Below, piece by piece: positions 9,584 to 21,932 of a DNA stretch of 21,933 nucleotides. Both the position numbers and the translations under genes were made by a program. Origin of the DNA: Methanoregula sp. (GTDB lineage: Archaea > Halobacteriota > Methanomicrobia > Methanomicrobiales > Methanospirillaceae); assembly GCA_039698055.1 (NCBI GenBank), contig JBDKTL010000028.1:1-21933 (forward strand), read 5' to 3'. The notes below the pieces were generated by a model. It made no database searches and was not told the origin of the DNA. It was given only the letters and a program-made list of their open reading frames with translations. Within the stretch, counting starts at the first letter, position 1, and the number at the start of each line of letters is the position of its first letter.

Positions 9584-11394
9584 TACCAAGGACAGAGCAG
9601 GAACAAAAAAAGGAAGCGGTCCGGCTTTTTGAGGACGGGCGGTACCAGGAGTCGCTGGAGATCTGCCACCTCCTGCTAGAAACGGTAAAAGACCCGACCC
9701 TTGAGATTCTTGCCGCCACCAACCTCTATTATACCGGAAAACTTGAGGATGCCGAGGTTTTTTTCCGTGACATTGCGCAGAAGATGCCCGAATCGTCCTA
9801 TGTCCACAGTTTCCTTGCAAAAGTCCTGGAAAGCCGGGGCGACGATGGCGCAATTGCCGAATATGCCCTTGCCGTGCAGCTTGACCCGACAAACCAGGCA
9901 GCACTCCGCAGTTATGCCGATTACCTGGTGCTGCGCAAAGATTTCCGGGGCGCACTGCCGGTCCTCAGGCGACTGGTGGATGCAGGGAGAAAACCCGGCG
10001 ACGTGCATGACCTGATGCGGGCGCTCATCGCAGCGGGGAATGCACAGGAAGCACTTGCCGTGTCCGCACAGTACGGGTCGGGTCATACCCGAACCGGGGA
10101 ATATGTGGACGCGCTTATCACGACGCAGAAGTACCGGGCCGCCGCCGATGCAGCGAGCCTGCTCTATAAAGAGACTCCTGACCCCGCCATGACACGCAGG
10201 TATCTTGCCGCACATTCGCTGGACGATCCAGCCGCCGGACCGGATGCCTATGCTGCATGTCTTGCCGATGCCGACAACGACGATATCCGGGCAGATTATG
10301 TCCGGCTCTTACAGGCTGAAAGAAGATATGCCGAAGCGCTCGCCGCATTACAATCCCTGTGCACCCGAACGTCCCTTCCCCTCTACCGGCTCATGGAGTG
10401 CGAGATCCTCGCAGCGACAGGTAACGACGTGGAAACGATCGCGGCATATGAGCGGCTTATTGGCGACGAACTCATAACAAAAAATGATCTTGAGATGCTG
10501 GAGCACATCATCAGGTCTTACCGGTCCTTTATCGTTTCGCACAGTGCTCCCGATACCGCCCGGGAGCGTTTCCTGTCCGTCGTCTCGCAGGATGTAAACG
10601 TTGTGAGCCTGCTTGAAACCGCCCGGTGGTATGAGGATGAGAGAAATGCGGTTGAAGCACGGGCATGGTATTACCGTGCGTACCGTGCCGATTACTTAAA
10701 CGGCGGGTTACCTTATGCCCGGTTCCTGTCCAGTCACGGGGAGGAACGGGAATGCGAGAAAGTGATGCTCTATATCCTTTCCAACGTGAAAAAGAGCGCC
10801 GATCTCGGGCGGGTTGCCAGAGTCATCGTGGATAAGAGCGGGACGATGCACCAGCTCAAACGGCTGGTCGGCCAGTTGATCAAACGGCTGGTCGAACGCC
10901 GGGCAGGCCTGAGTTCGGATGAGATGGAACTGCTGGCAGTCGCATTCTTTATCGCCGCACAACGGGCGCTCGAAGAGGCGGACTATGCGGAATGCAAGTA
11001 TTACAGTCTCTGCGGGATGGACGTCCTGCCGGCACAGGCAACCGGTTGCCAGCTGGAGGATTTCCTCGGGCTTATTAGGACATGCAAGGACCAGTCGATT
11101 GCCGAACGCCCCGTGATGCAGGCAGCACCGATAAAAAAACGGGTGACCACCGCACATCCCGTACCGGTACTGGCGCAACAGGTGGAACTATCAGACCAGG
11201 AGCAGAAGATCGTTGCATTTATCCGGTCACACCGCAAAGCAACCGAGATGGACCTGCGGGCACTGCTCCAGACCCGCCGGGTGACGGGGATCGTGAACCG
11301 GCTGATCCAGAAAGCAACGGCACAGGGAATCATGCTCATCAGGAAAAATGGTGTGGGAGATGACGGAGAGATCTATGAATATGCCGGAACCTGA
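9580..11394 (+). CDS. Large TPR/helical-repeat protein with a C-terminal winged-helix-like domain
   Basis: TPR-like units (AIAEYALAVQLDPTNQAALRSYADYL), a Pro/Lys linker, then LSDQEQKIVAFIRSHRKATEMDLRALL. ATG 9580 overlaps the GT2 stop (ATGA). Confidence 0.8.
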   Translation: MIPRTEQEQKKEAVRLFEDGRYQESLEICHLLLETVKDPTLEILAATNLYYTGKLEDAEVFFRDIAQKMPESSYVHSFLAKVLESRGDDGAIAEYALAVQLDPTNQAALRSYADYLVLRKDFRGALPVLRRLVDAGRKPGDVHDLMRALIAAGNAQEALAVSAQYGSGHTRTGEYVDALITTQKYRAAADAASLLYKETPDPAMTRRYLAAHSLDDPAAGPDAYAACLADADNDDIRADYVRLLQAERRYAEALAALQSLCTRTSLPLYRLMECEILAATGNDVETIAAYERLIGDELITKNDLEMLEHIIRSYRSFIVSHSAPDTARERFLSVVSQDVNVVSLLETARWYEDERNAVEARAWYYRAYRADYLNGGLPYARFLSSHGEERECEKVMLYILSNVKKSADLGRVARVIVDKSGTMHQLKRLVGQLIKRLVERRAGLSSDEMELLAVAFFIAAQRALEEADYAECKYYSLCGMDVLPAQATGCQLEDFLGLIRTCKDQSIAERPVMQAAPIKKRVTTAHPVPVLAQQVELSDQEQKIVAFIRSHRKATEMDLRALLQTRRVTGIVNRLIQKATAQGIMLIRKNGVGDDGEIYEYAGT

Positions 11395-12676
11395 ACAGAT
11401 GGACCCGGGCAGGATTGCAAGCCTGAATATCATCAATGCCCTCCGGAGGGGTACGGTGCCGGCGGGGGGGCTTGAACGCATCGCCGTCGGGCTTGACGTG
11501 GAAGAAGGCGTCATTGGCAAACAGCTCGATTACGTGGCGCAGGGAGGCGGCGACCTGAAATTTATCCGGGGCGATTACGGGAGCGGCAAAACGTTTCTTG
11601 TCGCCCGTTCCCTCGAGATCGCGACCGATAAAGGGTTTGTCACCACCCACGTCATCATCGGTTCACAGGCGCCGCTTTACAAGGTAAAAGCGATCTACCA
11701 GCAGATCTGCGCAAACCTCCGCACAAAGGAAGAGGATCACGCGCTGAAAATGATCGTCGACAACTGGCTTTTTTCCATTGAAGAGCGGTTACTGTCGGTC
11801 AGCGGGTCCGGTGAAGAGGATGCCGCCCTTGAAGCCGCAACCGAAAAGGAGATCGAGGCGGCACTTGCGGGCATCAGCGAGATGAACACGGCGCTTGCCG
11901 CAGCTCTAAGGACCTACTACCGGGCAAACAATGCCGGGGATTTTGCGCTGGCACAGTCGGCACTCGGGTGGATTTCCGGCGAGCCAAATATCGGCCGGGA
12001 CTTCAAACAGAAAGCGGGTATCAAAGGAGAGATTGACGATACGATAGCGTTTGCATTCCTCAGGGGGCTTGTCACGATCATCCACGGGTCCGGGTACAAG
12101 GGGATCGCCATTGCAGTTGACGAGATGGAAACAACACAGGGGCTCCAGCGCAACCAGCGCGAGAAGGGATACCACACGCTTGTCCAGATCATCGATGCGC
12201 TTGACCGGGGCGATATGCCCCGGTGCTATTTCCTTTTTACCGGGACACCAGCGTTCTTTGACGGTTCACGCGGCATCCGCTCCGTCACCCCGCTCTATGA
12301 CCGTATCAGCGTCGTGCAGGCAGACAATTTCAAAAATCCCCGCCAGCCACAGATCCACCTGGCAAAATTTGATACCGGTAAACTCGAACTGGTCGCGCTC
12401 AAGGTTATCGATGTTTATTCGCAGGCGTACCGTGAAGTCGACCGCGAGCGGATCTCCCACCGTTTTATCCGGGCGATGATCAAAAAGATCACGAACCGTT
12501 TTGGCGGACGGATCGACGTGATCCCCCGGATTTTCTTAAAGGAGTTCGTCGATGTGCTGGACAAATGCGAGCTCTATGACCAGTATAACCCGTGGGACGG
12601 ATATGAATTCGACGCGGAGCATATGAAAGGCGAACTGAAAAAAGAAGAAGAAGCGGTCATGGTCGTCGAGTTCTGA
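11375..12676 (+). CDS. BrxD-like / DUF2791 P-loop ATPase
   Basis: NALRRGTVP, KFIRGDYGSGKT (Walker A), IAVDEME (Walker B), FLFTGTP, PRIFLKEFVDVLD. Start at 11375 or 11381, overlapping the upstream gene. Confidence 0.85.
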   Translation: MNMPEPEQMDPGRIASLNIINALRRGTVPAGGLERIAVGLDVEEGVIGKQLDYVAQGGGDLKFIRGDYGSGKTFLVARSLEIATDKGFVTTHVIIGSQAPLYKVKAIYQQICANLRTKEEDHALKMIVDNWLFSIEERLLSVSGSGEEDAALEAATEKEIEAALAGISEMNTALAAALRTYYRANNAGDFALAQSALGWISGEPNIGRDFKQKAGIKGEIDDTIAFAFLRGLVTIIHGSGYKGIAIAVDEMETTQGLQRNQREKGYHTLVQIIDALDRGDMPRCYFLFTGTPAFFDGSRGIRSVTPLYDRISVVQADNFKNPRQPQIHLAKFDTGKLELVALKVIDVYSQAYREVDRERISHRFIRAMIKKITNRFGGRIDVIPRIFLKEFVDVLDKCELYDQYNPWDGYEFDAEHMKGELKKEEEAVMVVEF

Positions 12677-14975: not shown

Positions 14976-16265
14976 TTAGTTGTATCCTGGCAGTTCTCCC
15001 AAGGGCTGAGCAACCAGGTCTTCATACCTCAACAGTCCATCCCCGGCGGGATCTCCCATAGACCGGTTGTCATCAGCATCGGTGTATTTTGTCAGGTTCA
15101 TATGGGTATTATTCCCATTTTTATACACCTGAGAGTTGTTGAAAATATGCCAAGTCGGATCGGAATGGACCCAGGCACTACCTACTCGGTTTTCCAGGAT
15201 GCCATGCCCAAAGACCTGTCCGGTCTCATTCACCCACGTAATACCGAGGAACCGTGATGGGATCCCGAGCGAGCGGCTGAAGGTTACGTCCATCGTGGCA
15301 TACTCATCGCACACGCCCTCGTATCCCTGGTTTATTACATAGAGATCAGATGCAGCATAGAGCTTGTTCGTGTCAGAATCGACATAATGCATCGTATCAT
15401 TCACGTATGTGTTCAGTGTATTGGCAGTTTCAAACGGTGAGTTGGTGTTGTCAGCTGCGGTTGCTGCTTCCAAGATGATCGCATATCCTTCACTGAACGG
15501 GAAATGGTACAGGTCGCTTGTCTCAAGGTTGTCCCCGCCATCCGGGTCTGGCAGGTGCGAGGCATCATTGTTGTATTTTTCAATCCCGTTCAGTTCCAGT
15601 TGCCCGGACCATGTCACGGTATTGTCGGGGCCCACGGTGATGAAGGATCCCATCGGTTTTATTCCCACGGTACTCTGGCTTCCAACGACCATGAACGGGA
15701 TGGAAACCGTCATATTCGCACCGGGAGCGAGGTTCAAATACTCTGCCGGTGTGCCGAACCCATCTTCGATGGATACGAAATACACCAGGCCGCTAGCGGC
15801 TGTTGATCCATAATTGTGTATGACAACGGTCTGGGTAGCAACGGTGTCCTGTGTCCAGTACCAGTTGAAATACCCGTATTCCGGTGCCACGGGTGGGATC
15901 ACCGCTGCTGCCTTTGCCACGACATTGGTCTTCGATTCTGGCGTAACGAAGTTGATCTTCGCCGCTTTCATCGAGGACTTCTCAACATCAATAAAATTGT
16001 TTCCGGTCGGGAACTTCATATTTGGGCTGATAACTTCGACCCCCGGGTATGCTTTTGCCGTTTGTGCATCCATCTTTTTGATCGGGACCGTCGGAACAAT
16101 CACACTATACGCCGACATGTCCTTTTGTCCTGCCCATTCATCGAACTGTCCGACCCATCCCGGCGGTGTCGGGTTTGTCTGGTTCGTCGCGCTTGCAAGC
16201 GGAACAAACACCATTACCAGCATCACTGCCGCGAGCAGCAGTGAAAATCCTTTCATGTGTTTCAT
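14976..16265 (-). CDS. Secreted transglutaminase-like (papain-fold) cysteine enzyme with an Ig/CARDB-like domain
   Basis: Signal peptide ending PLASA; triad motifs GVCDEYA...RSLGIPSR, FGHG, WVHSDPTW; GGAGGT SD upstream. Confidence 0.85.
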   Translation of the reverse strand: MKHMKGFSLLLAAVMLVMVFVPLASATNQTNPTPPGWVGQFDEWAGQKDMSAYSVIVPTVPIKKMDAQTAKAYPGVEVISPNMKFPTGNNFIDVEKSSMKAAKINFVTPESKTNVVAKAAAVIPPVAPEYGYFNWYWTQDTVATQTVVIHNYGSTAASGLVYFVSIEDGFGTPAEYLNLAPGANMTVSIPFMVVGSQSTVGIKPMGSFITVGPDNTVTWSGQLELNGIEKYNNDASHLPDPDGGDNLETSDLYHFPFSEGYAIILEAATAADNTNSPFETANTLNTYVNDTMHYVDSDTNKLYAASDLYVINQGYEGVCDEYATMDVTFSRSLGIPSRFLGITWVNETGQVFGHGILENRVGSAWVHSDPTWHIFNNSQVYKNGNNTHMNLTKYTDADDNRSMGDPAGDGLLRYEDLVAQPLGELPGYN

Positions 16266-16394
16266 AGGGTTTTTTTACCTCCGTGTTGTTACGGAAGCAT
16301 GATCCAAAATCTTCATTAGAACAGAAGTTCATTGTATTATGCCTACGGGCAGGGTCGGGTTTGTCAAGTGTGCAAACTTATGTGAACCCGTCCT
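16266..16394 (-). promoter_or_regulatory. Structured 5' leader, copy A (candidate cis-regulatory RNA)
   Basis: Homologous to 21120-21241. Stem CGGGUU/AACCCG around GCACACUUGAC, hairpin UGCC-CGUA-GGCA, SD-sequestering hairpin at 16276-16299. Confidence 0.75.
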
Positions 16395-16420
16395 TTCCAC
16401 TTTTGAGATCAACATTCGTG

Positions 16421-16428
16421 ATATAAAG
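16421..16428 (-). promoter_or_regulatory. Putative archaeal TATA box
   Basis: CTTTATAT on the minus strand, preceded by A-rich AAATAAC, about 28 nt before the first leader stem. Confidence 0.5.
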
Positions 16429-16507: not shown

Positions 16508-17434
16508 TCAGATCTGCATGTCACAGATCATATAACGGATGCCCTTGTCCGGATAGGTGACAATGATCTGGAGATGGACGGGGACAGTCTCATTACCTGA
16601 CACGTCTCTGCCTTGGAGGGTGACTGATGCTTTCCTCTGGAATGGGAGCCCTTCCGGGGGGTTGATAACAGCATCAAGACCCGATCCCATAATTATCGAC
16701 TGGTTACTGGCATCTTTTTCATTAAGGAAAATCTTCACGGACGGAACCACATCATGTTTTATCCCTGAATCAGGTTGCATGACGATGCGAATGGAATCAG
16801 GGGCGGTACGGGTTACATCCACCCTGTCGTTAATGGGGACAAAACACCTGAGCTCTTCTGCAACGGGTCCCGGATTCCCGAGGTATAGCAGAACCGGCGG
16901 GACGATCAGGACTGCGAGGAGTAAAAACCTGGAGGAATGCAGTTGTCTCGTAATAGCGGATATATTTTGGATCTTCCTATCCTCCGGTGCGAATCCGCAT
17001 CGGGGTTCAGAGAAATATGCGCCGATGGCCTGTATGACCGCCGATGATATGAGGATTCCTGTCACTAGGATCGGCGAATCGGAAAAATCCGCTGAGTCCA
17101 ATACCAGTGTTTTGAACGCAACCAGCGCTGTGAACACAAGCGCTGTACAAATCCCGGACACCATTCCGATAATCAGCGCCCGTGAATTTTTTCCGGTACA
17201 GAACAAGCATCCTGTAAAAAAACCAAGGAGTGCGAATATGAGTGCAAACAGTACGATTACCTGAATAGAGTAATAATCATACAGAGAATGACATACTGCA
17301 AACGGAAGAAACTGATCCCATATCCCCTGCAGGAGAAAATACGCTGTTGCTGAACAGGCGCCGCCAAAACACCCAACGAGGATAATTACCGGTATCCGTG
17401 TCAGTAATTGCGTATGCTCACGAAAGGCACCCAT
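16508..17434 (-). CDS. Multi-TM membrane protein with a C-terminal pilin-like beta domain, paralog 3 of 3
   Basis: About five hydrophobic helices, then VDVTRTAPDSIRI...SGLD..INPPEGL...HLQIIVTYPDKG. ATG 17434 follows GGTGA; alternative GTG at 17443. Confidence 0.78.
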   Translation of the reverse strand: MGAFREHTQLLTRIPVIILVGCFGGACSATAYFLLQGIWDQFLPFAVCHSLYDYYSIQVIVLFALIFALLGFFTGCLFCTGKNSRALIIGMVSGICTALVFTALVAFKTLVLDSADFSDSPILVTGILISSAVIQAIGAYFSEPRCGFAPEDRKIQNISAITRQLHSSRFLLLAVLIVPPVLLYLGNPGPVAEELRCFVPINDRVDVTRTAPDSIRIVMQPDSGIKHDVVPSVKIFLNEKDASNQSIIMGSGLDAVINPPEGLPFQRKASVTLQGRDVSGNETVPVHLQIIVTYPDKGIRYMICDMQI

Positions 17435-17451
17435 GCATGTCACCAGAGAAA

Positions 17452-18429
17452 TTAAAGGTATAGATCGCGGTGTATCCCGGTCGAGCTCTTATCTGGAACG
17501 ATCACCTGAATGTGAGCAGGCATTGTTTCATTGGCAATCACATCCCTGCCCTGTAATATCACATAATCTCCATCCTGCCGTCCCAGTCCTTCACGGGGAG
17601 TAATTGTAACATCAAGTCCTGATTTTGCTATGAGCTCCTGGTTACTGACAATAATTCCATTCAGGAGAATCCTGAAAGTGTTATGGGACCCGCAACTCGA
17701 GCTCACCTTCAGACTTACGTGGATGGAATCCGGGCTGGTACGTACTACTGTAACATTGTCAGGAAGCTTTCCCGTACCGCATTGGTGACCGGGCTCACAC
17801 GTCGTCCCCTCCGGACACGCGAAGTAATCCGTGGTATCAACGGGGAGTGCAAGGAGACCAAGGGGAAATATAAGAAAGAGCGCGCATAATGCCACGAAGA
17901 AAAACCAGTGACGATATTTCCTGCCTGCTTGAGCCGAAGGTGCGGGTTCATCCGGACCTTGTCCGGATATCAAGCGGGATCCCTGATACCATGCACCGAG
18001 AACCTGAGGGAGGGTTGTGATCAGGATATACGCAACCAGAATGTAAATCAATATCTCCGCCAGGAACATGGGATGACTGCCCAAGATAAAACCTAAGGGA
18101 TATATTTCAACGAGGATAATGGTGACAAGAGTGGTACAGGCCCCGGATACCAATCCGGTCCGGATCGGATCCCGCCCTGTTTTTCTGCCGATACAGAACA
18201 GATCCGCCGTAACCATACCCAAAGTGAATGAAAGAAGGATAATTGTCCCGAATTTCCAGAACGGGTATAACGGGCTTACGATGTAAGAATAACAGGAAAT
18301 GAAAATTATCTGCTCTGCTTTCTGCAGGTAATAACAGGCTGCTGTTAAACATATGCCGCAAAAACAACCCCAAAGGATTATTGCAGGAAGCGACACCCGC
18401 AACCATTTATGATCAGAAAAGATGCCCAT
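17452..18429 (-). CDS. Multi-TM membrane protein with a C-terminal pilin-like beta domain, paralog 2 of 3
   Basis: Same architecture: VTVVRTSPDSIHV...SGLDVTITPREGL...HIQVIVPDK, plus a Cys-rich insert; GGAGA SD. Confidence 0.78.
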   Translation of the reverse strand: MGIFSDHKWLRVSLPAIILWGCFCGICLTAACYYLQKAEQIIFISCYSYIVSPLYPFWKFGTIILLSFTLGMVTADLFCIGRKTGRDPIRTGLVSGACTTLVTIILVEIYPLGFILGSHPMFLAEILIYILVAYILITTLPQVLGAWYQGSRLISGQGPDEPAPSAQAGRKYRHWFFFVALCALFLIFPLGLLALPVDTTDYFACPEGTTCEPGHQCGTGKLPDNVTVVRTSPDSIHVSLKVSSSCGSHNTFRILLNGIIVSNQELIAKSGLDVTITPREGLGRQDGDYVILQGRDVIANETMPAHIQVIVPDKSSTGIHRDLYL

Positions 18430-18579: not shown

Positions 18580-19578
18580 TCAGATATCCCGGTCACAGAT
18601 TATCGCCCGTTCACCGGTGTCTGGATAGGTGACAATAATTACGAGACGAACAGGGACTGTGTCATTTGCTGATGCGTCTTTGCCCCGGAGTATCACGGAC
18701 GCCCCGTTCCTATACAGGAGACCCTCTGAAGGTTTGATAGTATCGTCAAGTCCAGATTCTGTTATTATCGACCGGTTACTGACGTCCTTCTCACCAAGGA
18801 GAATTTGCACTGATGGAAGAGGTGAAGTTGTTCTCCGGACCTTGTTTGGATCAGGTTTCATGACGATCTGAACAGAGTCAGGGGCGGTGCGGGTTACGTC
18901 CACGCTATCGGTAATTGCGTAATCCCGGGGCTGTTCTGCAATGACTCCCGTACTCATACCGAGATATAACAGGCTTGGAGGGATGATCAGGACTGCGAGG
19001 ACTCCAAGTAATAAAAACCTGTAGGAAGGTAGTTTTTTCGTAATTGCTGGTGAGTCCGGGGTCTTCATATCATCCTGTGGAGCGCTGCGTCGGGATTCAC
19101 GGAAATATGCCCCCATTGCCTGTATGATGGTTGATATAAGAATAAATCCTGCGAGCGGGATCAACCACTGGTGGAAAAGCCCGTCGAGAAATACCCGAAT
19201 CAGGAAAGGATCACCAGCATAATGAAGTATCGGCGGATGGGAAATCATATCGTGAATAACAAGGATTGACGTAAACACGAGTGCTGTACATGTGCCGGAC
19301 ACCATTCCGATAAGAACCGGACCGAGCGCACGGTATCTGCCGGGGCTGAACAGGTCAGCTGCAATCACGGCCAGAACCCATAACAGAACGGCAAACGATC
19401 CAATTATCTGGAACTGGAATACCGGGGATAATAATGCGTAATTATATGCCAGGACCGGGGACCAGATGCCCTGCAGGAAGAAACTCACCGCAGCTAAACA
19501 GATGCCTCCGAAACAACCCCAGAGGACGATTGCCGGAATCAAAGCCAATAATCGGTCATGCTCGCGAATGGATTCCAT
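18580..19578 (-). CDS. Multi-TM membrane protein with a C-terminal pilin-like beta domain, paralog 1 of 3
   Basis: VDVTRTAPDSVQI...SGLDDTIKPSEGL...RLVIIVTYPDTG. Shares the GTGACATGCATG start context with 16508-17434. Confidence 0.78.
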   Translation of the reverse strand: MESIREHDRLLALIPAIVLWGCFGGICLAAVSFFLQGIWSPVLAYNYALLSPVFQFQIIGSFAVLLWVLAVIAADLFSPGRYRALGPVLIGMVSGTCTALVFTSILVIHDMISHPPILHYAGDPFLIRVFLDGLFHQWLIPLAGFILISTIIQAMGAYFRESRRSAPQDDMKTPDSPAITKKLPSYRFLLLGVLAVLIIPPSLLYLGMSTGVIAEQPRDYAITDSVDVTRTAPDSVQIVMKPDPNKVRRTTSPLPSVQILLGEKDVSNRSIITESGLDDTIKPSEGLLYRNGASVILRGKDASANDTVPVRLVIIVTYPDTGERAIICDRDI

Positions 19579-19593
19579 GCATGTCACAAAAAT

Positions 19594-20412
19594 TTATTGG
19601 AGGGGGTAAACTGATAACACATTCCCCAGAACAGCATCAACGATAACCGTTCCGCCATGACTGGTGTTATCATTGTTCGTTTCAATGGTCTCTACCATCC
19701 AGGCAAGCTTCTGGTTATCTCTGTCGGGAACAACTACTAATTTTGACTGGATTTTTGCGGCTGATCCCATTGCGAAGGTGCGCAGGGCTGTCTCCTGGGC
19801 AACGTTCTGTGATACTTTTGGAGTAGTATCAACGAGTAGTGGACGGTCTATCCCGATATAGGCGATTGAATTGTCCCAATCCGGGAGAACTGAGACCATG
19901 ACGGCAGACTGGGTGTATGCTTCTCCGGCCATCTCGTTCCAGACAAACAGGTATTCCCTGCCCGCATCACCATGATCAAGGATTCGCGATTCGGTAAGGA
20001 CCATGTTTTTACTGTTGAAGTCCCGGTAGTTCTTTTGGGCAAAAGCCTTAGCCTGCATCTCCATGCCGGGAATATCCTTTGCAGTGATAGAACTCGATAA
20101 TATCCCGTCCCGGATTATTGCCGATTCTATCTCACCGGTTTTTGCATTAATGGTAAACCGGCCGGTCTTTGTCGTAACTTCGTAAACTTTCCCGCTCGGT
20201 AGTTCTTTCGTCCCACGGTAAGCGATTTCTTCGTTCGGAGTTCCTGTAAAGTTCTGGATGTTCTCTTTAACTAATCCGGTCCCAATCGTTTCCGGTGAAA
20301 TAAGGGCATTCGAACCCTGGCTGGTATCTGCCGCGGCAACAGCCGAACAAGCAAAAACCAGTGATAATCCAATGATAATTCCGATAAGTTTTGAAAGGTT
20401 GATTTTCAACAT
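19594..20412 (-). CDS. Secreted protein with a PepSY/propeptide-like C-terminal region
   Basis: Signal peptide ending AVAAA; TPKVSQNVAQETAL...KLVV...KLAWMVE...VIVDAVLGNVL; GAGGTGA SD before ATG 20412. Confidence 0.7.
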   Translation of the reverse strand: MLKINLSKLIGIIIGLSLVFACSAVAAADTSQGSNALISPETIGTGLVKENIQNFTGTPNEEIAYRGTKELPSGKVYEVTTKTGRFTINAKTGEIESAIIRDGILSSSITAKDIPGMEMQAKAFAQKNYRDFNSKNMVLTESRILDHGDAGREYLFVWNEMAGEAYTQSAVMVSVLPDWDNSIAYIGIDRPLLVDTTPKVSQNVAQETALRTFAMGSAAKIQSKLVVVPDRDNQKLAWMVETIETNNDNTSHGGTVIVDAVLGNVLSVYPLQ

Positions 20413-20426
20413 CTTGTTCACCTCGA

Positions 20427-21119
20427 TTAATACCCTGCCCTCGCCGGGTCGATCGCGCTGGAGATGCTGCCCTGGATGACGTAACTGTCCATTCCCCCGG
20501 GATTGAGTAAGCCATACTGAGCACGGGTATCGATGAGAGAGTACACGGCTGCATCGTGGATGTTATACCGCTCATCAAGATAGTACCAGAACCTGTTTGA
20601 CCAGTACTCGGACTGTGGCGAGGTGATATAATTGCTGAAGCCTACCGCAGTGTCAACTCCCCGGGATGTTGACTCATATAACAGGTTCCCGTTCGTTGAA
20701 TCGGTGTTAGCAGTATTGCATGCTACATAAACCGCGAGTGCAACATCATTTAATTCGCCACTGGTGAACGACGAAAGTCTTATAAGACCAGGATTGCTTG
20801 CGGAAATAGCACTGTCTACTCCGTTGTGCTGGAATACAATCTGGCCCGGGCTCCCATGACCATCGACGAAAAATACATTGTCTGAGGGCATCCGCAAAAA
20901 GACACTGCTCGCACTTGGATTCTCAATATACGAAGCCGAATAACCCATACTTGTGAGTTCATTTGCCGCAACCTGTCCGGTTGCACGGGTATCAATAGTA
21001 TCGTAATAGACTCCGTAACTGCTTGCCTGGTACGCACTCACGCATGGTGTGAGCACCATTCCTGCCAGCAAAAGTGCAGACAGGAATGTACCAAATCTGA
21101 TACTGTTCATGTTTTTCAT
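20427..21119 (-). CDS. Secreted caspase/gingipain-fold (clan CD, DUF6345-like) cysteine protease candidate
   Basis: Signal peptide ending PCVSA; VFFVDGHGSPG (His-Gly) and LAVYVACNTA (Ala-Cys) dyad motifs; GVDTAVGF, RFWYYL; GGAGGT SD before ATG 21119. Confidence 0.72.
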   Translation of the reverse strand: MKNMNSIRFGTFLSALLLAGMVLTPCVSAYQASSYGVYYDTIDTRATGQVAANELTSMGYSASYIENPSASSVFLRMPSDNVFFVDGHGSPGQIVFQHNGVDSAISASNPGLIRLSSFTSGELNDVALAVYVACNTANTDSTNGNLLYESTSRGVDTAVGFSNYITSPQSEYWSNRFWYYLDERYNIHDAAVYSLIDTRAQYGLLNPGGMDSYVIQGSISSAIDPARAGY

Positions 21120-21241
21120 TACCTCCGTTCTGTTACATCGCGGAGGCATGATTCAAATTTTCTTTTAGGAGGAGGAAATCTGTTTCATGCCTACGGGCAG
21201 GACCGGGTTTGTCAAGTGTGCATCCAATGTAAACCCGGTCT
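21120..21241 (-). promoter_or_regulatory. Structured 5' leader, copy B (candidate cis-regulatory RNA)
   Basis: Perfect 10-bp stem GACCGGGUUU/AAACCCGGUC around GCACACUUGAC, hairpin UGCC-CGUA-GGCA, SD-sequestering hairpin at 21120-21148. Confidence 0.75.
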
Positions 21242-21542
21242 CATCTTTTGAGGCAACTTTTGGCTGCCCACAATAAGCGATTTATAATTTCGTTATATAT
21301 TTTCTCTGTCCCTATCATCGAACTGGGAAAATTTTCTCAAAAAAGTGAAAGATGTTGGCCGATGAAAACTTCATTGAATTTACCGGTCATGGATAGGAAA
21401 GAAAATGTTACAGGTGTGACAGTAACCTGCGCGGGGAAATATTCCGGACTCGTTAAAATCAATTACCATTATGAATGGGTATGAAGGTGACTGGGTTTGC
21501 AGGCGGCCCCGTCCGACTCCAAAGAGAAAAACCCGGTACTCC

Positions 21543-21932
21543 TTATTTCCGGAACTTCCTCAATATAGCCTCAACTTCCGGTAAAATGATATAGTTCCTG
21601 TTCCTGCCGTCCCACCGGAAAGCAACCATCTCCTCTTCAATGAACTGTTGGAGATGCCAATGAATCGTGTTCCGTTTTAAATCCAAACGCTCCGCGATCT
21701 CCTTATTGCTGATGCCTGGTTGGTCGAGTATCAAATTGAGAATTTTCTGCTTTGTCGGATTCATGATATATCCGTAGACTCTTTTTTTCTCAAGGGGTCT
21801 CCCGCTGTTGGCGAAAATATAACTCAGTTTCCCATATTTTTTTTGCACAACCTTTCGTTCGAGAAGGAGAAGGTAGAGATGATACCGGGCGGTTCCCCGG
21901 TTAATGCCGGTATTTTTCGAGAGATCCGCAAT
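21543..21932 (-). CDS. Archaeal transcription regulator with two winged-HTH domains (5' end outside the window)
   Basis: Frame stays open to the window edge: IADLSKNTGINRGTARYHL..., then TKQKILNLILDQPGISNKEIAERLDLKRNTIHWHLQQF. Confidence 0.85.
   Translation of the reverse strand: MADLSKNTGINRGTARYHLYLLLLERKVVQKKYGKLSYIFANSGRPLEKKRVYGYIMNPTKQKILNLILDQPGISNKEIAERLDLKRNTIHWHLQQFIEEEMVAFRWDGRNRNYIILPEVEAILRKFRK

Follow-up and report, generated by a model that had tools for sequence, protein, structure and literature searches.

The 21,933-nucleotide (nt) stretch of Methanoregula sp. DNA described here (the window; contig JBDKTL010000028.1 of assembly GCA_039698055.1) carries two copies, A and B, of a large family of structured 5′ leaders found in methanogenic archaea. 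Both copies lie on the minus strand, each ahead of a gene for a secreted protein. The leader forms the middle part of a block that runs from a putative promoter to a signal-peptide sequence, and within this block it probably, on balance, acts as a translational switch in which an anti-anti-Shine-Dalgarno segment, an anti-Shine-Dalgarno segment and the Shine-Dalgarno (SD) sequence itself compete for pairing. New here are the archaeal leader family itself, its wide distribution and the SD look-alike within it.

The window copies and the leader family

A near-repeat between 21222-21187 and 16374-16339 on the minus strand, the starting point of the original prediction, was reproduced with identity at 34 of 36 bases. 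Likeness between the two copies extends over approximately 250 nt, up to the start codons, with a mean column identity of 77%. An 18-mer common to A and B occurs twice in the window against 0.02 occurrences expected from shuffled sequence, and none of 100 shuffles gave two. The parts of both leaders are listed below, with helices designated P0 to P3 and with elements 1 to 4 denoting the segments whose pairing is proposed to alternate between an OFF and an ON state.

About 21121-21269, minus strand: copy B leader
21251-21269, minus strand: copy B P0, 21269-21263 with 21257-21251 (minimum-energy fold)
21201-21240, minus strand: copy B P1, 10 base pairs (bp), 21240-21231 with 21210-21201 (fold and family covariation)
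21186-21199, minus strand: copy B elements 1 and 2, with P2 of 4 bp, 21199-21196 with 21191-21188, and a CGTA loop (fold)
21195-21186, minus strand: copy B element 2, the SD look-alike (candidate anti-anti-SD "decoy")
21154-21182, minus strand: copy B P3 (fold)
21141-21151, minus strand: copy B anti-SD arm, predicted to pair with the SD (OFF) or with 21195-21186 (ON)
21117-21127, minus strand: copy B SD arm, GGAGG at 21122-21126 (sequence and fold)
21117-21119 and 21108-21110, minus strand: first ATG and second in-frame ATG after copy B
About 16277-16393, minus strand: copy A leader
16353-16393, minus strand: copy A P1, 16393-16385 with 16361-16353, one A.A mismatch
16339-16351, minus strand: copy A elements 1 and 2, P2 16351-16348 with 16343-16340, SD look-alike 16347-16339
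16310-16329, minus strand: copy A P3 (alignment with the family)
16277-16301, minus strand: copy A anti-SD arm 16301-16291 and SD arm 16284-16277 (GGAGG 16278-16282)

Compared with shuffled sequences, the minimum-energy folds reach z scores of -3.3 for the B leader and -3.1 for the A leader, and the SD is buried in both. Much of the structure proposed previously from the two copies was recovered. The pairing registers of P1 were confirmed in A and B, and the covarying pair quoted for this stem is in register (A-U at 21239/21202 in B versus G-C at 16392/16354 in A). The small hairpin that follows P1 (21199-21188 in B, 16351-16340 in A) is present in the minimum-energy folds, as is the SD-burying hairpin (21151-21141 with 21127-21117 in B; 9 bp, 16299-16291 with 16285-16277, in A), which is also conserved in the family. 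P3 of copy A is not formed in that copy's own minimum-energy fold.

The 161-nt B leader was compared by BLAST with 61 related genomes, yielding many partial matches centred on the bases after P1. A regular expression applied to the fetched loci gave 41 matches, two of them at contig ends; five (in L017, L018, L020, L027 and L050) were dropped as coding-like sequence without P1, and BLAST matches within the own genome on contigs C46, C43 and C16 were set aside as chance likenesses of the same kind. A covariance model, R1, with 106 positions and 22 pairs, was built from 36 copies (alignments A2 and A4). In the own genome R1 finds exactly three copies, with E values from 1e-15 to 1e-18 (copy A at 16293-16399, E 9.5e-19), the next match having an E value of 0.07. 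The third copy, on contig C8, has a different, GC-rich P1 stem that is still complementary. Throughout the genus there are 298 matches (E ≤1e-4) in 61 of 108 genomes, with a maximum of 21 per genome; G020 and G061, with 3 and 21 copies, are single-contig genomes, which suggests that cultured isolates exist. The model matches 47 of 151 sampled genomes of the order, in five of its six families (f1 15/29, f2 2/20, f3 5/12, f4 6/30, f5 18/30, f6 0/29), and a class-level search covered the same six families again. Outside the order, in a sample of the phylum, matches occur in 5 of 14 genomes of one family, f7, whose copies retain P1, the conserved core, the anti-SD, the SD and a signal-peptide open reading frame (ORF); none was found in 117 genomes across 18 other families of that sample, and family f26 gave a single weak match of 70 nt (E 0.008).

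Helices of the family are maintained by compensatory change. In a plain MAFFT alignment built from the 36 copies, pairing holds in 87% of cells, and both partners vary at 10 of 22 pairs; shuffles of this alignment reach the observed value in 0 of 500 cases on four of five measures and in 6 of 500 on the fifth. In a model-fitted alignment of 55 copies from 54 loci the corresponding figures are 90.5% and 17 of 22, against 35-47% paired when partners are slid. Both-sided changes in the larger alignment affect 10 of 11 pairs in P1 (90.9% of cells paired), all six in P3, and one of five modelled pairs in the long-range helix between elements 2 and 3 (GGCAT/ATGCC), where U-A or U.G becomes A-U in seven rows from distant families. 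P0, assessed in the 36-copy alignment, pairs in 76.7% of cells; both partners vary in six of its seven pairs, and one position is most often G.U (20 of 36). The P1 loop is 18-21 nt long in 53 of 55 copies, varies in sequence and often holds a small inner helix, and the top of the helix and an internal loop are conserved in the family alignment. All eight paired columns of P2 are invariant or nearly so. RNAalifold, run on the plain alignment, returns only 11 pairs and proposes pairing of the 5′ arm of P1 with GCCCG of P2.

Four further structural or coding candidates were discarded. A pseudoknot between the loops of P2 and P3, which are complementary in the genus consensus, was dropped because the P3 loop does not follow changes of the variable P2 loop base (alignment A4). 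A box C/D or kink-turn motif after P2 was rejected because the window copies have not retained its boxes, a T-loop reading of the top of P1 was rejected by eye for its misfit to the tRNA pattern, and an upstream leader peptide was rejected since the start codons of the short ORFs in copy B are not conserved in the family.

Alternative pairing around the Shine-Dalgarno sequence

The proposed switch would comprise four elements. Element 1 would be the short stretch after P1 (TGCC in both window copies), element 2 resembles a ribosome-binding site (CGTAGGCATG in copy B), element 3 would be the anti-SD (CATGCCTCCG in copy B) and element 4 the true SD. In the OFF state element 1 would pair with 2, forming P2, and element 3 with 4, so that the ribosome site would be buried; in the ON state elements 2 and 3 would pair in a long helix enclosing P3, leaving the SD free. 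The count of pairing covered 31 distinct anti-SD-bearing leaders of families f1, f2, f4, f5 and f7, the two window copies among them. Here the anti-SD is complementary to the SD, and an upstream segment is complementary to the same anti-SD bases, the arrangement expected of an expression platform that would control the SD by alternative pairing. Seven core positions of the 2:3 pairing each pair in 25-31 of the 31, and five core positions of the 3:4 pairing each pair in 28-31.

The conservation pattern after P1 follows the demands of this scheme. The stretch reads YGCC-CGNA-GGCA, with the CGNA loop in 76 of 82 distinct copies. Its one free position, N, opposes a C that the SD requires and pairs in 10 of the 31 leaders. 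YGCC is dispensable for the 2:3 helix and able to close P2. Alternative pairing with the anti-SD accounts for the invariance of the CGNA loop and its flanks, so that no ligand pocket is needed to explain it. Predicted energies for copy B are -48.0 kcal/mol (OFF) and -46.9 kcal/mol (forced ON), a difference of 1.1; for copy A they are -35.6 and -32.0 kcal/mol, a difference of 3.6. Alternation between the two states is a predicted property of the leader, and a trans-acting factor binding the P1/P2 part would set the state. Such a factor is more likely to be a protein than a small molecule.

The original prediction had called the element riboswitch-like, arguing from invariant unpaired nucleotides plus an expression platform. 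A true riboswitch, in which the P1 domain and P2 would bind a small molecule or ion, fixing element 2 in P2 so that the anti-SD closes the SD, would suit a multi-helix RNA that is conserved across an order, matches no known family and has two states of near-equal energy in copy B; it would also give a function to the constant length of the P1 loop and to the conserved helix top and internal loop, which are otherwise unexplained. The argument as first made is not supported, however. The supposedly invariant 12-mer is carried by only 4 of 82 distinct copies and is one variant of a P1 loop that varies in sequence, the bases that are invariant are accounted for by the alternative helices, and the gene set indicates no ligand, as the downstream proteins share export and not a metabolic pathway. 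Up to 21 copies per genome stand before unrelated genes, and such copy numbers are unusual for metabolite riboswitches. We regard a true riboswitch as distinctly unlikely.

A second leader type is common in the genus (e.g., L061:1400-1605, minus strand, and copies in L066 and L073). Here a conserved CGAGCG-type stretch replaces the anti-SD, the 5′ arm of a hairpin overlaps the partner of the SD look-alike, and the SD lies free downstream.

Several observations weigh against a translational switch as the general function of the leader. An anti-SD together with an SD was found in only 30 of 75 distinct copies, by a scripted rule that missed copy A. Copies without an anti-SD, mostly from the genus, have another 3′ hairpin and a free SD, and the predicted pairing probability of the SD ranges from 0.01 to 1.0 among copies; burial of the SD therefore cannot be the family's sole function, and the second leader type needs another explanation. 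Because P2 and most of the 2:3 helix are invariant, covariation cannot test them, and the shuffle controls overstate support since the 55-copy alignment is model-fitted and copies within a genome are related. Cover of the leader by contigs from RNA libraries (see below) does not prove transcription, and such libraries may contain DNA.

The free SDs would fit a constitutive leader without a switch, in which P0 or P1 shields the mRNA from 5′-end-dependent decay and the remainder tunes translation; judged by TATA spacing, transcripts would begin only a few bases from P0 in copy B and from P1 in copy A. This arrangement leaves unexplained both the joint conservation across orders of the SD look-alike, its four-base partner and the anti-SD, and the burial of the SD in the lowest-energy fold of both window copies, and we consider it unlikely, if less so than a riboswitch. 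Melting with temperature offers another route to SD release without a factor: an RNA thermometer made of P2 and the SD hairpin would be compatible with the length of that hairpin (6-9 bp) and the closeness of the two states in energy, yet some 100 nt of conserved sequence with covarying P0, P1 and P3 would be superfluous to it, and the sole thermometer family to appear in the Rfam comparison, that of HtrA, did so at chance level (E 0.4; 19 bits, with a gathering score of 52). A thermometer is accordingly rated very improbable. The translational switch, together with the 5′ hairpins, remains the preferred reading.

Putative promoters, RNA-library cover and the neighboring regulator

Candidate promoter features and the nearest regulatory gene lie upstream of the leaders as follows.

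21293-21325, minus strand: putative promoter of copy B, with an upstream box at 21314-21325, a purine-rich box resembling a B recognition element (BRE) at 21301-21312 and a TATA-like box at 21293-21300
16420-16427, minus strand: TATA-like box of copy A
21546-21932, minus strand: 3′ part of a gene for a regulator with two winged helix-turn-helix domains (two-wHTH regulator), running off the window (HTH_24, E 5.3e-17)

TATA-like boxes lie upstream of the leader copies. The order of boxes seen before copy B recurs in other families, including f7 (L120, L121, L122 and L124), and before many copies of the genus, and a regular expression for the upstream box, written after the sequences had been seen, matches 28 of 61 upstream regions versus none in a reverse-complement control. 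From this recurrence, the boxes at 21293-21325 would be expected to function as a promoter. For copy B the TATA box had previously been placed at 21272-21287; the box at 21293-21300 is the better candidate because it directly follows the promoter box common to distant copies, and the earlier position is disfavored because an RNA-library contig covers 21264, upstream of the start that it would predict. The spacing usual in archaea between TATA box and start, applied to copy B, would place its start at about 21270, at the foot of P0. Copy A lacks the upstream promoter box and also P0, its TATA-like box occupying the usual place of P0, an arrangement also found in 2 further copies (G002 and G031) of the 36 aligned. 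Because this box stands where P0 lies elsewhere, transcription of copy A would start just before P1.

The region is represented in four metatranscriptome runs from one study; X1 and X2 stem from one sample. Contigs from X1 (from 18427) and X2 (from 18396) run unbroken to 21264, from three ORFs through the SD hairpin, P3, P2 and P1 to a point inside P0. At 21264 they end and adapter letters follow; contig ends of this kind say nothing about the transcript start. No RNA-library contig covers 21265-21563, and none covers P1 of copy A, whose leader is touched only by a contig of run X3 (16098-16331, depth 2.7). The X3 contig differs from the window by two bases and a one-base gap, and a related strain in the sample is its probable source. 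The leader would be transcribed together with the downstream gene as its 5′ untranslated region (UTR), and the claim of an RNA-level element on the mRNA strand before secreted proteins is supported.

The regulator beside copy B has relatives near other leaders. A full-length paralogue (L051:2977-3762, plus strand, 261 amino acids [aa]) combines HTH_HVO_0163_N with HTH_24, and the paralogues are about 260-290 aa long. They stand beside two of the three leader copies in the own genome, and they adjoin the C8 copy as well as copies in G019, G023, G032, G042, G151 and G219. Across five genomes with 55 leader copies in all, 8 of 27 paralogues have a copy within 3 kb, where 0.75 would be expected; six of these eight are divergent, at a distance of approximately 1.1-1.4 kb, and they stand mostly at the head of a leader cluster. 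Places of this kind are found in G061, G105 and G019. On contig C34 of G000 (2-385), at the contig start, lies a second copy of the C-terminal part of the regulator, 94% identical, which may reflect a near-duplicate locus or an assembly split.

This association raises the alternative, already voiced in the original prediction, of an operator for the two-wHTH regulator: P0 and/or P1 would be DNA operators, and the RNA folds a by-product. The paralogues do adjoin leader clusters, and P0 overlaps the predicted start site, a usual place for archaeal repressors to bind. The hairpins themselves are nonetheless poor candidates for the target. Stems differ within one genome yet stay complementary (a T/A versus C/G position in G019; the GC-rich P1 on C8), a complementarity that a single DNA-binding protein does not require, and the frequent G.U pairs in P0 and in the 2:3 helix count against an operator since G.U exists only in RNA. 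Between regulators identity is 25-36%, in contrast to a leader core that does not differ from place to place. What stands of the proposal is the neighborhood, and the likelier target is the separate conserved promoter box; for the hairpins, an operator role is given little credence.

Genes headed by the leader and comparison with known RNAs

The preference for an RNA that acts on translation is in keeping with the position of the leader. Beyond the end of the model, at 18-48 nt on the same strand, 47 of the 55 copies have an SD-like word and a start codon, and the ORF opens with a hydrophobic signal-peptide stretch. Among the other eight, the script placed the start wrongly in three, inspection by eye revealed a start and signal peptide in another three, and L096 and L097 have no ORF. 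The f7 copies likewise precede an SD, a start codon and a signal-peptide ORF. Beyond the signal peptide, the downstream proteins have little in common: the mature parts of 32 of them fall into 14 BLASTP groups. Pfam families were assigned in this set to Peptidase_C39_2 (4), reprolysin-like (3), DUF6345 (2) and Transglut_core (1), with none in 22 of 32; in a second set of 43 proteins, from 49 references, they were C39_2 (3), Transglut_core (3), Peptidase_S8 (2) and one each of DUF6345, MZB and reprolysin, with none in 32 of 43. The genes do not form a set tied to a single metabolite, as their products share the signal peptide only. Leader copies are often found in tandem clusters, 3-4 kb apart.

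Signal peptides of otherwise unrelated downstream proteins are nearly identical, with the consensus M..K..VVLLALLLAAMAMVP.VSA (alignment A3). As this likeness reaches the DNA level, the conserved block reaches some 75 nt past the start of the coding sequence. The promoter, the leader and the signal peptide probably form a reusable block, which Methanoregula and related methanogens have set before numerous secreted-protein genes that are unrelated to one another and in several cases encode peptidases. A unit of this kind, often in tandem clusters, could also be a block of homology kept by duplication or gene conversion, or the end of a mobile cassette (an integron attC site, for instance), and would then regulate nothing by itself. 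Compensatory changes maintain the helices, however, and parts are conserved between orders despite unrelated flanking genes. The homologues, which might have lacked covariation or stood in random orientation to genes, instead covary and are constant in orientation, at a fixed distance from SD and start codon in the same 47 of 55 copies, and each copy has its own TATA-like box. A passive block of homology is hardly to be believed in on this evidence.

Genes downstream of the window copies, and other ORFs of the same strand, are the following.

20427-21119, minus strand: gene B, secreted 230-aa protein carrying a signal peptide (227 aa if translated from the second ATG)
19594-20421, minus strand: PepSY-domain protein, the next gene after B
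18580-19587, 17452-18429 and 16508-17443, minus strand: ORFs after the PepSY gene, no family
14976-16265, minus strand: gene A, secreted 429-aa transglutaminase-like protein (cysteine-peptidase fold; Transglut_core, E 4.9e-10)

By BLASTP, proteins A and B show no likeness to each other beyond the signal peptide, which in protein A was read from the sequence. Protein A has homologues at 73-85% identity in metagenome-assembled genomes of Methanoregula sp. Protein B gives a weak match to DUF6345 (E 0.008, below the cut-off), and its Atlas model resembles CHAT and Peptidase_C25 (caspase-like) domains (TM 0.69-0.75 by query), a likeness to be taken as a lead only. PepSY is a domain family named for peptidase propeptides, and protein B and the PepSY protein (19594-21119, minus strand) may constitute a secreted peptidase with its inhibitor.

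The leader matches no known RNA family, as had been supposed. Rfam 15 gives no match at the gathering score anywhere in the window; at E ≤10 the surroundings of both copies give chance-level rows only (best 23.9 bits against a 43-bit gathering score), and six loci with diverse copies give no match at E ≤0.1. Searches of papers on methanogens and archaeal cis-regulatory RNA found no description of such a leader. The main texts of two motif surveys contain neither a word beginning with "Methano" nor "signal peptide", their motif lists being placed in supplements (PMC2864571; PMC5737381).

Several known systems resemble the leader in part. In the thiM riboswitch for thiamine pyrophosphate (TPP), the anti-SD has two alternative partners, the SD in the off state and an upstream anti-anti-SD in the on state; when the switch is off, the anti-anti-SD is captured by a fourth stretch (PMC2018614). 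To that extent the three mutually exclusive segments of the leader, 1:2 and 3:4 versus 2:3, are alike. The leader differs in having no TPP aptamer and no relation in sequence or Rfam family to thiM, and in being archaeal, present in multiple copies and placed before genes for secreted proteins. With archaeal TPP and fluoride (crcB) riboswitches, the crcB motif being described as present in bacteria and archaea (PMC2864571), it shares the form of a cis-acting structured leader in the 5′ UTR. Neither family matches the leader at any threshold tried, and TPP and crcB riboswitches control genes tied to their ligand, whereas the genes behind the leader share only export.

Two bacterial comparisons concern the block and the 5′ end. 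The upstream homology box of Borrelia erp genes and the surface-lipoprotein families of Mycoplasma have shared upstream blocks that are kept alike mainly by recombination, and like them a single promoter-leader-signal-peptide block heads many unrelated or variable exported proteins; unlike them, the leader is conserved across an archaeal order and beyond, has covarying helices and carries a putative SD switch. Stabilizer hairpins of the ompA type stand at the 5′ terminus of bacterial mRNAs, and the mRNA for an exported protein is similarly predicted to open, at the head of a long leader, with a hairpin, which would be P0 for copy B and P1 for copy A. The enzymes of mRNA decay differ in archaea, however, the 5′ end of the leader is a predicted one, and stabilization leaves elements 1 to 4 unexplained.

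Apart from the leaders, the window contains an ORF of the BREX ATPase family BrxC_BrxD (11348-12676, plus strand, E 1.2e-130), preceded by a gene for a 635-aa tetratricopeptide-repeat (TPR) protein.

To our knowledge, few natural cis-regulatory RNAs are known in archaea. The family described here adds a leader of about 150 nt that has good covariation support and hundreds of copies throughout an order whose methanogens matter in wetlands and digesters. The leader stands before genes for exported peptidases and for secreted proteins without an assigned family, and may control them. It provides a defined RNA with which to ask whether masking of the SD switches archaeal translation, it marks out an unannotated regulon of secreted proteins, and the promoter-leader-signal-peptide block could serve protein secretion in methanogens. 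A more ambitious reading, advanced tentatively and judged unlikely, sees in the leader a sensor RNA new to archaea: a riboswitch, or else the site at which a dedicated RNA-binding protein attaches. It would set the translation of a whole set of exported proteins, many of them peptidases, in the Methanomicrobiales and in at least one family of another order. If true, this would be the first secretome-wide RNA regulon described in archaea, with up to 21 unrelated genes per genome.

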